Shown: positions 5,596 to 10,087 of the stretch, one piece after another
Numbering within the stretch: position 1 is the first letter of the stretch
How the letters are laid out: the number at the start of each line of letters is the position of its first letter
Assembly (NCBI GenBank): GCA_963793305.1
Contig: CAWBZV010000002.1
Location: forward strand, 224,001 to 288,000
DNA length: 64,000 nt
Source of the DNA: an uncultured Gemmatimonadales bacterium
Lineage (GTDB): Bacteria > Gemmatimonadota > Gemmatimonadetes > Gemmatimonadales > Gemmatimonadaceae
Direction of reading: 5' to 3'
Made by a program: the position numbers and the translations under genes
The notes under the pieces: generated by a model
What the model saw: only the letters and a program-made list of their open reading frames with translations
Databases searched by the model: none
What the model was told of the DNA's origin: nothing

Positions 5596-6823
5596 GTGAC
5601 CACTGACGGACGCCATACCGTGAGCGCGGCAGCCACGCAGAAGCCAGTCCGGATCGCGCCGATCCTGACGGCCGTGGTCCTCACGGGCCTGCTGCTCTGG
5701 ATGTTCCTCAAAACATCCGATGTCTTCCTGCTGCTCTTCCTCGCGACGCTGTTAGCGCTCTACCTCGGCGCCGTCGCCGATTTCATCGCGCGCCGCACGC
5801 AGCTCCCCCGCCCGATGGCATTCGGGCTCGGCGTAGTGCTCACGCTGTCGGTTGGCGCAGGCATCGTCGGCCTGCTCGTACCGCCAGTCGTGCAGCAGTC
5901 GCAAGAGCTCTTCGGTCTCGTTCCATCGACCGTGAGCGCCTTGCAACGCGAGATCGCGACCCTCTCCGCGAAATTCCCAGGGCTGGCCAAGCAAATCGGC
6001 CCCATTCAGGACCAGGTCCTGAATAACCTACCGGGCCAGATCTCGGCCGTCGTCGGCGACGTCGTCCCTCGCGTCTTCTCGGTGCTGGAAGCGATCACTA
6101 TCCTGTTCACCGTTCTCATCATGGGGATCTACCTGGCACTCGAGCCAGCGGTCTACCGCGAGTGGGTGATCGCGCTCTTCCCTCCGCTCCATCGCGACCT
6201 GGTCCGCGACATCCTGACCGACATGGGCTCCAAGCTGCGCGACTATATCGTCGCGCAGCTCCTGACCATGGTGATCCTCGGCGCCCTGACCGCCTTGGGC
6301 CTCTGGGCGATCCACGTCCCGTTCTGGCTGACGTTCGGTGTCCTGAGCGCGGTTGCCGCAATCATCCCGGTGTACGGTGTGCTCCTGTCGACGGCCGTTC
6401 CCGCGCTGTTCGTGATCAGCCAGCCGAACGGACTCGTTCGCGCGGCGCTCGTGCTCGGCCTCGGCGTCTTGATCCACGTCATCGAGGGCAACTTCGTCGC
6501 GCCGAACATCATGTCGAAGCGCGTCGATCTGCCGCCGGTCCTGACGATGTTGGCCGTGCTGATCTTCGGCGAGCTCCTCGGTCCGGTCGGTTTGCTCGTG
6601 TCCGTCCCATTGCTCGTCGTGATCATGGTGCTCGTCCACCGCTTGCTCGTCGCGCGGCTCTACGAGGGGCGCGGCTTCCGTCGCGCGCGCCGCGATGGTC
6701 CGATCACCGTGCGCGTACCGGCGGCCGAGGGTGGTGGCAGCGGTATTGCCGTCTCGGCGTATGATGGCATGCCGCTCGAACGTCATCGCGTTATCCGAGC
6801 GAGCGCGAGCCGGTCCCAGCTAG
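5596..6823 (+). CDS. AI-2E (PerM/TqsA) family transporter; probable 1-nt insertion near 6779
   Basis: Multi-TM protein with IPVYG, IEGNFVAPNIM and GPVGLLVSVPL motifs; SD GGGAG at 5586. The track ORF runs to 7011, but removing one base near 6779 gives ...PLDVIALSERARAGPS* ending at TAG 6821-6823, just before a terminator-like hairpin. Confidence 0.8.
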
Positions 6824-6848
6824 CGATCGATAGCGATGGCGCGCGTCG

Positions 6849-6887
6849 TGGCGTGATGACGGGCTTCGTCCCGCATCACGCCATTTT
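6849..6887 (+). terminator. Intrinsic-terminator-like hairpin
   Basis: TGGCGTGATG(A)CGGG - CTTCGT - CCCG CATCACGCCA followed by TTTT. Confidence 0.7.
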
Positions 6888-6916
6888 CGTCTCCGACCAT
6901 TTCACAAGGAGACGTC

Positions 6917-7108
6917 ATGAACAAACTCGCCCTCGCCCTCTGCTTGGCCACGAGTCTCGTCGTAGCGCCGGCCGCGCCGGCTCAATCGTGTCTCGTTTCA
7001 TCGTTCAGTAGTTGTGGCGGGACATTCTCCGGCGCAGACTGGTTCTGGGTCGCGCTGCAGGACTACTGTGGGTGGACCCGGTTCATCCTGTGCGATTTCG
7101 GTTTCTAG
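6917..7108 (+). CDS. Small secreted cysteine- and aromatic-rich peptide (Cx7C-x17-Cx7C)
   Basis: SD AAGGAG at 6906-6911; Sec signal peptide MNKLALALCLATSLVVAPAAPA; 41-aa mature region with 4 Cys. Confidence 0.75.
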   Translation: MNKLALALCLATSLVVAPAAPAQSCLVSSFSSCGGTFSGADWFWVALQDYCGWTRFILCDFGF

Positions 7109-7443
7109 CCGAGCGCGGCATCGCGGCGGCGCTGCTCGCGGCCGGCATTCTGTTGCCGGTAGCAGCGCTCGCCCGCCGGCGCACCGGTCCGCCGACCGCG
7201 CTCCTGTTCGTGAGCCGCGGGTGCGCTCGCTGTCTGGCCGCGGCCGCGCAGTTCGACTCGATGACGACGCGGCGCGGCGTCCGTGCGGTTCTCGTCGTCG
7301 ACTCCGGGAGTTGGGCCACGGTCGCGCCGCACGTGCTGCTGACCCGCGACTCGGGGCACGCTCTCGCGCGCGCACTGTCCATTCGCGCGGTCCCCGCGTT
7401 GGTCTCGATCACCGCGGTCGTGCGCTACGACTTCGACCGATGA
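7090..7443 (+). CDS. Membrane-anchored or secreted thioredoxin-like (redoxin) protein
   Basis: GTG 7090 overlaps the peptide gene end; N-terminal hydrophobic helix, LLFVSRGCARC (CxxC), D....LARALSIRAVP cis-Pro-like motif; ATGA overlap with the next gene. Confidence 0.65.
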   Translation: MRFRFLAERGIAAALLAAGILLPVAALARRRTGPPTALLFVSRGCARCLAAAAQFDSMTTRRGVRAVLVVDSGSWATVAPHVLLTRDSGHALARALSIRAVPALVSITAVVRYDFDR

Positions 7444-8036
7444 CGCGCATCCTCTCGCTCCGTGCCATCCGGAAATCGTACCGGAGCGGCATACCAGGCT
7501 GCTCGGCCGCCGTGCGCGTGCTGCGCCGCGTCGATCTCGACGTCGTGCCCGGCGAAGTCGTCGGGATCGTCGGCGGGCCGGGCTCGGGGAAGTCGACGTT
7601 GCTGCTCTGTGCCGCGGGCCTGCTCCGTCCCGATGCCGGCACGGTCGAACGTCCGCGGGACGGGACGTACGTCTCGGCGCTTCCGCCGGCCTATCACTGG
7701 ATGGCGGTGCTCGACATGGTCGCCCTCTTGACGCGCTTGCCACGCCCCACGGCGATTCGCGAGTCGCTGGATCGCGTCGGGCTCGGCGGTGATCTCGCTC
7801 GTCCGGTCGGCACACTGTCGAGCGACGCGCTGGCGCGACTCCATGTCGCGTTTCTCCTCGTTACCATGCCGGTGCTCGCCCTCATCGATGGACCGATCTC
7901 GGCGCTCATCGGGTTGCTGCCGCCTGCTGGTGTCACGGTCATGGTCGCGGCGCGGGACGCCCGCGCGGTCGAGTCGCTCGCGACACGCGTGGTTGTGCTC
8001 GCCGACGGCATGGCGCGCGGGGCGGTGCGCAGGTGA
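7440..8036 (+). CDS. ABC transporter ATP-binding protein (degenerate)
   Basis: Walker A GGPGSGKST intact; signature LSSDA, Walker B ALIDG and the H-switch are all degenerate. Confidence 0.8.
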   Translation: MTRILSLRAIRKSYRSGIPGCSAAVRVLRRVDLDVVPGEVVGIVGGPGSGKSTLLLCAAGLLRPDAGTVERPRDGTYVSALPPAYHWMAVLDMVALLTRLPRPTAIRESLDRVGLGGDLARPVGTLSSDALARLHVAFLLVTMPVLALIDGPISALIGLLPPAGVTVMVAARDARAVESLATRVVVLADGMARGAVRR

Positions 8037-8617
8037 TATGGCTGGCGCTCGTTGCGCATGCAGGATCTGGCTTCGCCCTGCTCGTCACGCTTTCGGCACG
8101 GCTGCAGCCAGCGTTGCTTGCCACCGCTCACCCTGGCCATTCGCTGGCGCTCGAGCCGGGACTTCGCATGCTACTCATCGCCTATGCGTCGACGCCTCGG
8201 TTGACGGCCATCCCCATGGCGGCGGTTGCCTGGCTGCGCGCTGGCCGAATGGGTCGTGAGCGCACCGAGTTTCGCCGATGGTTTGGCGCCGGGTTCGTGG
8301 TCCTCGCCGCCGAGTCGGTGCTCCGGGCATTGGCGGCGCTGGGCGTCCACGACGCGATGACGCCGGCAACATGGGCGGCGAAGCTCCGGCCGCCGTTACC
8401 GATTGTTTCGGCAGCGGTCACGATGATCGTCGCCGGCATGTGTTGGGCACTGGCGTTGAGAGAAGCGACGGCGGCTCGGCGCGGGTCTGCCGACGGACCG
8501 GACGTGTGGGACACCCAAGACGCGGCCGCCGCGATGTGGTGGACGGGCGCGATCGCCATTGCCGCGTCACACCTCGTCGCGCCGCTCGCTGTCGCGTTCG
8601 TTCTGCGCCTCGGTTAG
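8033..8617 (+). CDS. Integral membrane protein (possibly Yip1-like or ABC permease partner)
   Basis: About 5 hydrophobic segments; GTGA overlap with the ABC ATPase gene. Confidence 0.6.
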   Translation: MIWLALVAHAGSGFALLVTLSARLQPALLATAHPGHSLALEPGLRMLLIAYASTPRLTAIPMAAVAWLRAGRMGRERTEFRRWFGAGFVVLAAESVLRALAALGVHDAMTPATWAAKLRPPLPIVSAAVTMIVAGMCWALALREATAARRGSADGPDVWDTQDAAAAMWWTGAIAIAASHLVAPLAVAFVLRLG

Positions 8618-8631
8618 CTTGTGACGCTCCG

Positions 8632-10087
8632 ATGCCGTCTGCGCCACCCTTCCTTCTGTACGACACGATGTTGCGCAGGGTCGAGCCGTTCGCTCCGGCG
8701 GACGGGAAGACCGTGCGCCTCTATACGTGCGGCCCCACGGTCTACAACTTCGCGCACATCGGAAATTTTCGGACGTTCTTGTTCGAGGATCTCCTGCGTC
8801 GGGCGTTCGAACTGCGCGGTTGGGATGTCGATCAGGCGATGAACCTGACGGATGTCGAGGACAAGATCATCGCCAAGGCCGTGAAGGAGCGAGTCACGAT
8901 CGGCGACGTCACGGCGCCGATGATCGTGCAGTTCTTCAGGGACCTGGACTACCTCAAGATTCAGCACGCCGAGCACTATCCGCGGGCGACTGAGTACATC
9001 CCGCAGATGATCGCGCTGGTCCAGAAGCTCGAGGAGCGCGGCATTGCGTATCGCGCGGACGATGGCTCGGTGTACTTCGCGATCCAGCGGTTTCCGTCGT
9101 ACGGCCGTCTCTCGCGACTCGACAAGCGCGAGCTCAAGCCCGGCGCTCGGGTGTCCAGTGACGACTACTCCAAGGAAAACGCCGACGATTTCGCCTTATG
9201 GAAGGCGGCCAAGCCCGAGGATGAGCAGACGGGCGCCGCATGGGATTCGCCCTGGGGGCGCGGGCGCCCGGGCTGGCATCTCGAGTGCTCGGCCATGGCG
9301 ATGTCGATTCTGGGGCAGACGCTCGATCTCCATTGCGGAGGGATCGATCTCATCTTCCCGCATCACGAGGACGAGATCGCCCAGTCGGAGGGCGCGACCG
9401 GGGTGACCTTCGCCCGGCATTGGTGCCACGGCGAGTTTTTGCTGATGGAGGGGGCGAAGATGGCGAAACGGGTCGGCAACGTTGTCACCGTTGCCGACTT
9501 GCAAGCCGAAGGGATTCCGGCGGCGGCCGTGCGGCATTCTCATCTACAACACGCATTACCGGCAGGTGCTGAACCTGACGGACGAAGGTCTGGAGGCATC
9601 CAAGGCCGCCGTCATGCATTTGGCTGAGCTCGCTGAGCGTCTGGATTCGCCTATGCCAGGCAGCGGTACCCCGGCCATGGCGACCGCCGTCGCCGAGCTC
9701 GAACAGGGTATTAGAGAGGCGCTGTTCGACGACCTGAACGCTCCGCGTGCACTCGCTACGGTGTTCAACTTCGTTCGGGCGGCCAATGCCGACCTCGACC
9801 GTAAGGGCGGCGATGCTTCGGCTATCTCCCAGGCCCGCAACGGTCTCCAGTTCATCGAGACGACGCTCGGCATCGTCCCGCCCAAGCGCTTAATGGGTAT
9901 CTACCCGCCGCAGCACGACGGCGCTGACGAGGTCACCCAGTGGGTGAACGCCCGGTTGGCGGAGCGAGCGGCCGCCAGAGTCGCCCGGGACTTCGCCAAG
10001 GCCGATGCCATACGGGATGAGCTCGCTACAAAGGGTGTCCAAATCAAAGACTCGGGCGTCGGGACGACGTGGAAGAAAGTCAGTTAG
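8632..10087 (+). CDS. cysS: Cysteine--tRNA ligase, split by an apparent 1-nt insertion near 9537
   Basis: YTCGPTVY, HIGN, GRPGWHLECSAM and KMAKR in one frame; IYNTHYR, DDLNAP and DFAKADAIRDEL continue in the next frame. Confidence 0.93.

Follow-up and report, generated by a model that had tools for sequence, protein, structure and literature searches.

The window (the whole 64,000-nt stretch of DNA analysed) contains, in order, uvrA, a CGNR zinc-finger gene, a CesT-like gene, pspA, an AI-2E family transporter gene, four cassette genes, cysS and tuf. All features placed by window coordinates below lie on the + strand. The window's own genome is denoted G000, its genus g1, and the Gemmatimonadales families f1, f2 and f3. 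dN/dS values were calculated with a Nei-Gojobori script, mainly against the reference L017 (~90% identity), and were 0.04 for AI-2E and 0.10 for cysS. All four cassette genes gave values <0.45 against both L017 and G003, with all frames open, indicating purifying selection.

The AI-2E family transporter gene (5596..6823, PF01594) probably ends at the TAG codon at 6821-6823. One surplus base near 6779 shifts its frame and prolongs the ORF over the peptide gene. The reading frame stops at the equivalent of 6821-6823 in L017, G001 and G005, and the surplus base is missing from a near-identical contig of run X1; run X4 spans the site at a depth of 6.8, with no deletion listed. A second surplus base, at 9537, frameshifts cysS and is missing in 4/4 runs. 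Both single-base insertions are probably assembly errors. Given the relatives, the X1 contig and the similar cysS base absent from all four runs, the masking of the peptide gene, which the sequence-only reading had described correctly for the assembly, is probably an artefact of that kind and not biology. A genuine C-terminal extension of AI-2E through the region was rejected, since the X1 contig lacks the base and AI-2E in the relatives checked ends before the peptide gene.

The first cassette gene (6917..7108) encodes a 63-aa precursor with a predicted Sec signal (aa 1-22) and a 41-aa predicted twin-Cx7C helical hairpin, assigned from sequence features, homologues and a model; dN/dS versus L017 was 0.27. 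The strong Shine-Dalgarno (SD) sequence claimed for it was located (AAGGAG, 6906-6911), as were the symmetric cysteine spacing (residues 25, 33, 51 and 59; x7-x17-x7) and, in the 41-aa part after A-P-A, 10 aromatic residues with a net charge of -2. The peptide is probably exported via Sec. Its N-terminal Gln, earlier proposed to cyclize to pyroglutamate, is not conserved, Asp following A-x-A in many members, so pyroglutamate is not a family feature. For the mature window peptide the calculated monoisotopic mass is about 4589.0 when oxidized and 4593.0 when reduced, or some 17 lower if pyroglutamate forms. As a chance control, 40,966 Met-started ORF pieces of 40-110 aa (genome, six frames) were scanned; 7 matched the C-terminal twin-Cx7C pattern, and only the window peptide combined it with a hydrophobic leader. 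The window peptide is an atypical family member in which the IRGWCY motif is replaced; it shares 34% identity with that of G003 and retains the cysteines.

After the true AI-2E stop, the peptide leader contains a predicted GC-rich hairpin (6848..6884), which folds in 5/5 genus-level sequences (z -3.6 to -5.2 in four, -1.6 in G003); two-sided change was found at 4/29 consensus pairs, and a search of Rfam gave no match. A stem pairing the SD of the peptide gene (6888..6914) was predicted singly in 5/5 genus-level sequences; its covariation count is unusable, the alignment being out of register there. The pairing probability of GGAG was >=0.7 in 18/18 peptide genes versus 45% of 300 own-genome control genes, a test weakened by high GC, kinship and the single control genome. 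L105 and L113, in which another peptide gene precedes, were left out of this test and scored 0.74 and 0.67, respectively.

The second gene (7090..7443) encodes a thioredoxin-fold protein with a CARC motif and one hydrophobic segment (aa 10-28) as N-terminal anchor (dN/dS 0.33 versus L017). Its putative start, GTG at 7090, lies 19 nt within the peptide gene and has no SD; the overlap reported earlier is therefore uncertain as to start codon, and the overlapping GTG-started frame itself is kept in L017 and G003. The protein matches Pfam Thioredoxin_2 weakly (E 0.11), and orthologues match AhpC-TSA/Thioredoxin_2 at ~1e-4, below the cut-off. The coupled junctions reported between the later genes are present (ATGA at 7440-7443, GTGA at 8033-8036). 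The third gene (7440..8036) encodes an ABC ATPase (PF00005, E 1e-13) with Walker A intact, LSSDA as signature, DG in place of Walker B DE and an H-loop without His (AARD), and so departs from the catalytic motifs; dN/dS was 0.09 versus L017 and 0.09-0.36 versus four relatives. A C39 domain was not found in the cassette ATPase.

The fourth gene (8033..8617; dN/dS 0.18 versus L017) encodes a shortened membrane protein, homologous by position and profile to the Yip1-type protein of the cassette. hhalign gave E 1.8e-4 (probability 48.5%) against the family alignment and E 4.5e-6 (86.5%) against the G109 member. No Pfam match was obtained for the window protein, so that it is tied to the Yip1 family by hhalign and position only; BLAST against the G182 orthologue (E 0.22) and the A11 profile (E 0.23) were not significant, and its AlphaFold model was poor (pLDDT 58.6). 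Across the cassette family, 1/19 members matched PF04893 at E 1.2e-6 and 2/24 homologues were already so annotated; Atlas feature matches of 0.91-0.97 led to clusters in which 32-54% of the members carry Yip1, with TM 0.64 to a Yip1 cluster. Judged from these matches, the membrane protein noticed in the sequence-only reading can be specified further, as Yip1-related at family level. SpoIIM/DUF95 was not matched among the membrane proteins scanned.

Peptide family and cassette distribution

The peptide belongs to a family with invariant cysteines, encoded with a recurring gene set at a fixed locus, and its presence is linked to an intact ATPase. A single-sequence search with the window peptide returned 5 homologues; one close homologue is annotated as Gemmatimonadaceae bacterium. 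Searching with a 24-row profile yielded 152 clusters at 90% identity, with C-x7-C-x17..20-C-x7-C kept in 120/120 among the matches listed, and 84 representatives at 50% identity, 76 of them new (45 strict, 31 Cx3C, Cx8C or other variants); the profile search itself favours the twin-Cx7C pattern. C-x7-C-x14..20-C-x7-C was kept in 166/197 homologues (not deduplicated) and the pspA-cysS/tuf site in 19/20 mapped peptide loci, so that the conserved spacing and synteny proposed as a check were both found.

Signal peptides were assigned by rule-based features: among the 166 strict members, 160 had a basic N-region, 161 a hydrophobic region and 160 A-x-A, and a GG-type motif lay just ahead of C1 in 3. 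F occupies C2+4 in 93% of strict members; R (92%), G (92%) and W (83%) precede C3 and Y follows it (84%), and the loop between the helices is variable in sequence. The RG-aromatic motif is absent in 19/166, the five close relatives of the window peptide all among them. Core charge has a median of -1 and is positive in 11/166; a fifth loop cysteine occurs in 0/166.

Pfam searches of 148 members at E<=0.01 matched only LPAM_1 (2), DUF7259 (1) and PsbQ (1), with no bacteriocin model; the best NCBIfam E-value for 24 members was 0.0095, none a bacteriocin. The best E-value of a PDB profile search was 0.16, and sequence matches in PDB were rejected as chance zinc-finger pieces. AlphaFold modelled the 41-aa core (148 rows) as the anticipated helical hairpin (helices 2-14 and 20-39, pLDDT 85), in which the cysteines would form nested C1-C4 and C2-C3 disulfides. 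Foldseek with this model gave no match and VIA-align generic hairpins only (best Z 5.7); a consensus-type peptide reached 0.81 in the ESM Atlas, in unnamed clusters, which is a lead only. Core similarity was 0.43-0.46 between families, 0.40 within f1 and 0.48 within f2. By these comparisons the peptide family is new, matching no Pfam, NCBIfam or PDB entry, and the gene arrangement is new but made of known parts. No description of the family was met in the literature found, a search of open papers; supplements may list such loci.

Peptide matches at E<=0.001 were obtained in 33/401 phylum genomes (G000 and G012 included), 28 below 1e-12 and 5 weak; all 28 fall in three families of the window's order, and 0/129 genomes of families f5-f12 had a match. 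The full cassette comprises the peptide (1-3 paralogues), an optional redoxin, an ABC-2 permease, an ABC ATPase and a Yip1-type protein. In most loci it follows pspA/AI-2E immediately and is read from the same strand; the one mapped locus elsewhere, in G395, adjoins a beta-propeller gene. The Yip1-type membrane protein was found in 18/18 full-order loci with downstream cover. The membrane-anchored redoxin was seen in f1 and f3 and was absent in the f2 loci inspected; a CxxC redoxin is present in the window as first described, and optional in the family. Several redoxins adjoining peptide genes carry CPHC, the oxidase-type motif of DsbA.

Across 23 loci, the ATPase tree clusters by family like the CysRS tree, with f3 placed differently, and ATPase and CysRS identities were correlated (Mantel rho 0.79, 0/2000 permutations; kin not independent). 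Peptide identity did not track a 70-aa CysRS piece (rho 0.07, 452/2000 permutations; 22/31 loci passed the filters), so the case for vertical descent comes from synteny and the ATPase tree. A contig profile search with the ATPase alignment was dominated by unrelated actinobacterial ABC proteins. No glycosyltransferase lies between pspA and cysS in the window, where all genes are accounted for, and none was seen in the 20 mapped loci, whose unlabelled ORFs were read by eye and in part scanned with Pfam. Inspection of the cassette showed no gene for a sensor or regulator. The idea of a cysteine-sensing leader for cysS was rejected, the peptide gene lying 1.5-4 kb upstream and mostly encoding a signal peptide.

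Related arrangements were noted beside the family. Sister cassettes (L183:5655-9652, L185:5814-9651, L182 and L184, from G311, G118, G018 and G288) carry a redoxin, a membrane protein, an ABC ATPase and an ABC-2 permease, and a stand-alone peptidase C39 was seen in three; they encode two signal-bearing Gly/Ala-rich CxxC...CxxxC peptides, hydrophobic and of two-disulfide type, and those scanned had no Pfam or NCBIfam name. Their redoxins are related to the cassette redoxins (hhalign E 1.7e-9). Away from cysS, L175 and L192 (G395, G423) and L193:5480-8538 (G211) combine a beta-propeller protein and ABC genes with Cx3C forms of the IRGWC peptide and further cysteine peptides. In genus g68 (L036:1284-1472, L105, L107, L108, L110-L113), a signal-bearing Pro/Trp-rich cysteine peptide heads three-peptide arrays.

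Gene association and decay in the window's genus

For 100/148 genomes, the DNA preceding cysS was retrieved, and 79 of these regions had an upstream anchor. G012, short contigs, redundant genus members and about ten peptide-positive genomes were left out, so peptide frequency is understated. Peptide, permease, ATPase and Yip1 occurred together in 4 of the anchored regions (2 with redoxin), permease and ATPase in 12, an ATPase or fragment only in 37, and nothing in 26. Yip1 was found in 0/75 peptide-less anchored intervals, and the redoxin likewise never without peptide. ATPase motifs were intact in 13/13 peptide-and-permease loci, 4/12 peptide-less permease loci, 0/40 lone ATPases (many fragments) and 0/4 members of the window's genus. 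Retention of permease and ATPase without peptide in 12 regions (4 motif-intact), with Yip1 in none of 75, is the pattern expected of orphan immunity. L189 and L190 (f1) have peptide and intact pump without Yip1; the membrane gene of L187 and L188 has diverged too far to be confirmed as Yip1. A second peptide paralogue follows the ATPase at L189:7293-7553 (G071), in the usual Yip1 position. In some peptide-less genomes (L229:3137-4147, L222, L230 and L264) the pspA-cysS slot is taken by unrelated exported proteins that belong to no known family.

Within g1, four different decay states were found among six genus-level loci. G000, L017 and G003 encode the peptide, redoxin, degenerate ATPase and shortened Yip1-type protein; the permease was not found with the family profile in G000 (92% complete). 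In G001 and G005, the start codon abuts the first cysteine, giving 35-36 aa with four Cys kept (dN/dS 0.23 between the two), and redoxin and membrane gene are lost. G002 retains just the redoxin and a three-Cys peptide, without ATPase or Yip1. The joint loss of signal peptide, redoxin and Yip1, whether it happened twice or a single time in a common ancestor, fits a role of redoxin and Yip1 in handling the exported form. Leaderless variants of 35-40 aa with cysteines kept were also seen at L019:2092-2199, L020:2096-2200, P0181 and P0169.

By sequence comparison, the four genes represent a decayed state of a cassette with five components, and the missing permease and degenerate ATPase mark the window's genus; the degeneracy first reported thus holds for the window and not for the family, relatives having an intact ATPase plus an ABC-2 permease. 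The pump in g1 is probably inactive; with the IRGWCY motif also replaced, the window copy is likely to be attenuated or repurposed. The decay series would account for the common orphan degenerate ABC ATPase before cysS in the Gemmatimonadales. A lone motif-degenerate ATPase or fragment is widespread (37/79 anchored regions), and the degenerate ATPase is under purifying selection in g1, which suggests a non-catalytic second role.

Proposed function and alternatives

In the reading we favour, to which we give about even weight, the cassette makes a Sec-exported, two-disulfide hairpin peptide acting as a bacteriocin-like envelope toxin, with the ABC-2 transporter likely to serve self-protection or release, and decayed in the window's genome. 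The earlier proposal of a disulfide-stapled hairpin with a redoxin and a transport or immunity module survives in a conserved, probably Sec-exported form, with the permease missing and the ATPase degenerate in the window. A stem over the ribosome-binding site would hold translation low; the precursor would be exported by Sec and cleaved after A-x-A; and the anchored redoxin, or host Dsb where the redoxin is absent, would form the nested C1-C4 and C2-C3 bonds. The Yip1 protein may then serve as a production factor that handles the peptide at the inner membrane, permease and ATPase may clear it from the producer's membrane, and the conserved IRGWCYxIR helix may bind a conserved envelope target.

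The weight given to a bacteriocin-like role rests on the likeness to bacteroidetocins and lactococcin 972, the presence of Yip1 in bacteriocin clusters and the C39-bearing sister cassettes. Tandem divergent peptide paralogues, the lack of a visible sensor or regulator inside the cassette and the predicted SD occlusion in 18/18 were also counted in its favour. Against it stand the mostly acidic cores, which typical membrane-active bacteriocins do not resemble, and the fixed locus among housekeeping genes with an ATPase tree tracking CysRS, unlike mobile bacteriocin clusters. The core is about as similar between families as within f1 or f2, which argues against arms-race diversification. Purifying selection on the peptide in g1 after pump decay, the leaderless G001/G005 and G002 also count against it, and L189 and L190 count both against it and against strict coupling. 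Two other readings stay in play because of the acidic charge, the fixed locus and the slow divergence of the core.

The first makes the peptide a signal, either secreted or periplasmic, connected with the adjacent Psp envelope-stress genes; Yip1 would be its receptor, and the ABC system would remove or sense it. We regard this as unlikely. It would agree with the fixed position, in most loci immediately after pspA/AI-2E and in the same orientation, the transporter following the host tree, the acidic core with one conserved helix face, Yip1 never being seen without peptide, and the structured leader; but no kinase, regulator or sigma factor was seen in the cassette, no sigma-70-like promoter site was found at it, pspA is kept without peptide in 75/79 anchored intervals (a sample depleted of known positives), and the main text of a Psp survey (PMC11237479) makes no mention of Gemmatimonads.

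The second, an improbable reading, makes the peptide a non-toxic periplasmic protein, either a structural or regulatory subunit of ABC-2/Yip1 or a four-Cys metal binder kept reduced by the redoxin. Its four cysteines are kept in the leaderless, presumably cytosolic G001, G005 and P0181 under the low dN/dS noted for the first two, the core is strongly conserved and ATPase integrity tracks the peptide; however, the modelled Cx7C hairpin would suit nested disulfides better than a metal site, several adjoining redoxins carry CPHC, and the 4 motif-intact pumps occur without peptide. That the window copy is a non-functional relic of a cassette working elsewhere is very improbable, for although no permease was found in G000, ATPase motifs are broken in 4/4 genus members and decay states are many, all four genes are constrained against L017 and G003, all frames are open and the cysteines persist despite the divergence from G003.

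A more specific statement, held tentatively and judged somewhat doubtful, is that the cassette is an ancestral, vertically inherited Gemmatimonadales system with an acidic twin-Cx7C hairpin, leader-silenced, downstream of pspA and with Yip1 as membrane partner. If true, the peptide would be a disulfide-stapled envelope signal or bacteriocin of a new class, bacterial Yip1 proteins would gain a defined ligand, and the C39-bearing and beta-propeller sister cassettes would make the cassette one branch of a modular peptide platform unnamed in family libraries. The family (152 clusters, 84 representatives) offers short, synthesizable disulfide peptides from an abundant, poorly cultured phylum, and the tight Yip1-peptide linkage a direct test of bacterial Yip1 function in peptide clusters.

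Relation to known peptide systems

Genome mining of Gemmatimonadota, in the portions available, lists lasso peptides, Nif11-type bacteriocins and microcins and not the cassette peptide family; no mention of such a cassette occurs in the accessible text of PMC11316326, PMC8692599 or PMC11237479. Glycocins (sublancin, glycocin F, pallidocin), as described in the available sections of PMC6405829 and PMC12457901, likewise have two helices with an interhelical loop, a thiol-disulfide oxidoreductase in the cluster and nested disulfides, the helices being modelled and the disulfides predicted in the cassette peptide. The cassette differs in having no glycosyltransferase, double-glycine leader or peptidase-ABC and no spare loop cysteine (0/166), and the sequence-only reading was right to set the peptide apart from glycocins. 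Glycocin spacing is Cx6C, whereas that of the cassette peptide is Cx7C.

Clusters for circular and leaderless bacteriocins (PMC8659200, PMC11580447) include Yip1 proteins, as does YknWXYZ, a pump for resistance to SDP (PMC4887032); in the parts available of these sources they are encoded with an ABC system handling an antimicrobial peptide, as is proposed here. YknYZ is described there as MacB-type with a fusion protein (PMC4887032), whereas the cassette system is of ABC-2 type. Unlike the products of the circular and leaderless clusters, the cassette peptide is linear and has a predicted signal peptide, and no SpoIIM/DUF95 match was obtained among the membrane proteins scanned.

Lactococcin 972 (class IId) is, in the accessible text of PMC4786598, a Sec-exported unmodified peptide adjoining an ABC transporter thought to confer immunity; it is Gram-positive and plasmid-borne, with no redoxin or Yip1 described there. 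On the class IId features, the cassette peptide has a Sec signal by rule-based assignment and matched no known bacteriocin family in the Pfam and NCBIfam searches. The bacteroidetocin locus, as far as set out in the available part of PMC6671954, encodes a 42-aa four-Cys peptide, a 5-TM protein, a thiol oxidoreductase and an ABC protein, of which the TM protein and oxidoreductase are required for full activity and confer no immunity. Bacteroidetocins Bd-A/B thus share with the cassette a diderm producer, a ~42-aa mature four-Cys peptide, a multi-pass membrane protein, an ABC protein and a thiol oxidoreductase in most, not all, loci (PMC6671954). They have a double-glycine leader of 15-16 aa and a peptidase-fused ABC exporter (PMC6671954), whereas the cassette has a Sec-type leader, a split ABC-2 permease/ATPase and a fixed locus; they are set apart here by description, and the 5-TM protein is not stated as Yip1 in that text. 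Four-Cys peptide, thiol oxidoreductase and multi-pass membrane protein were found in one locus, and GG leader with peptidase-ABC was not. By analogy, the plan of the cassette most resembles that of the bacteroidetocins and lactococcin 972.
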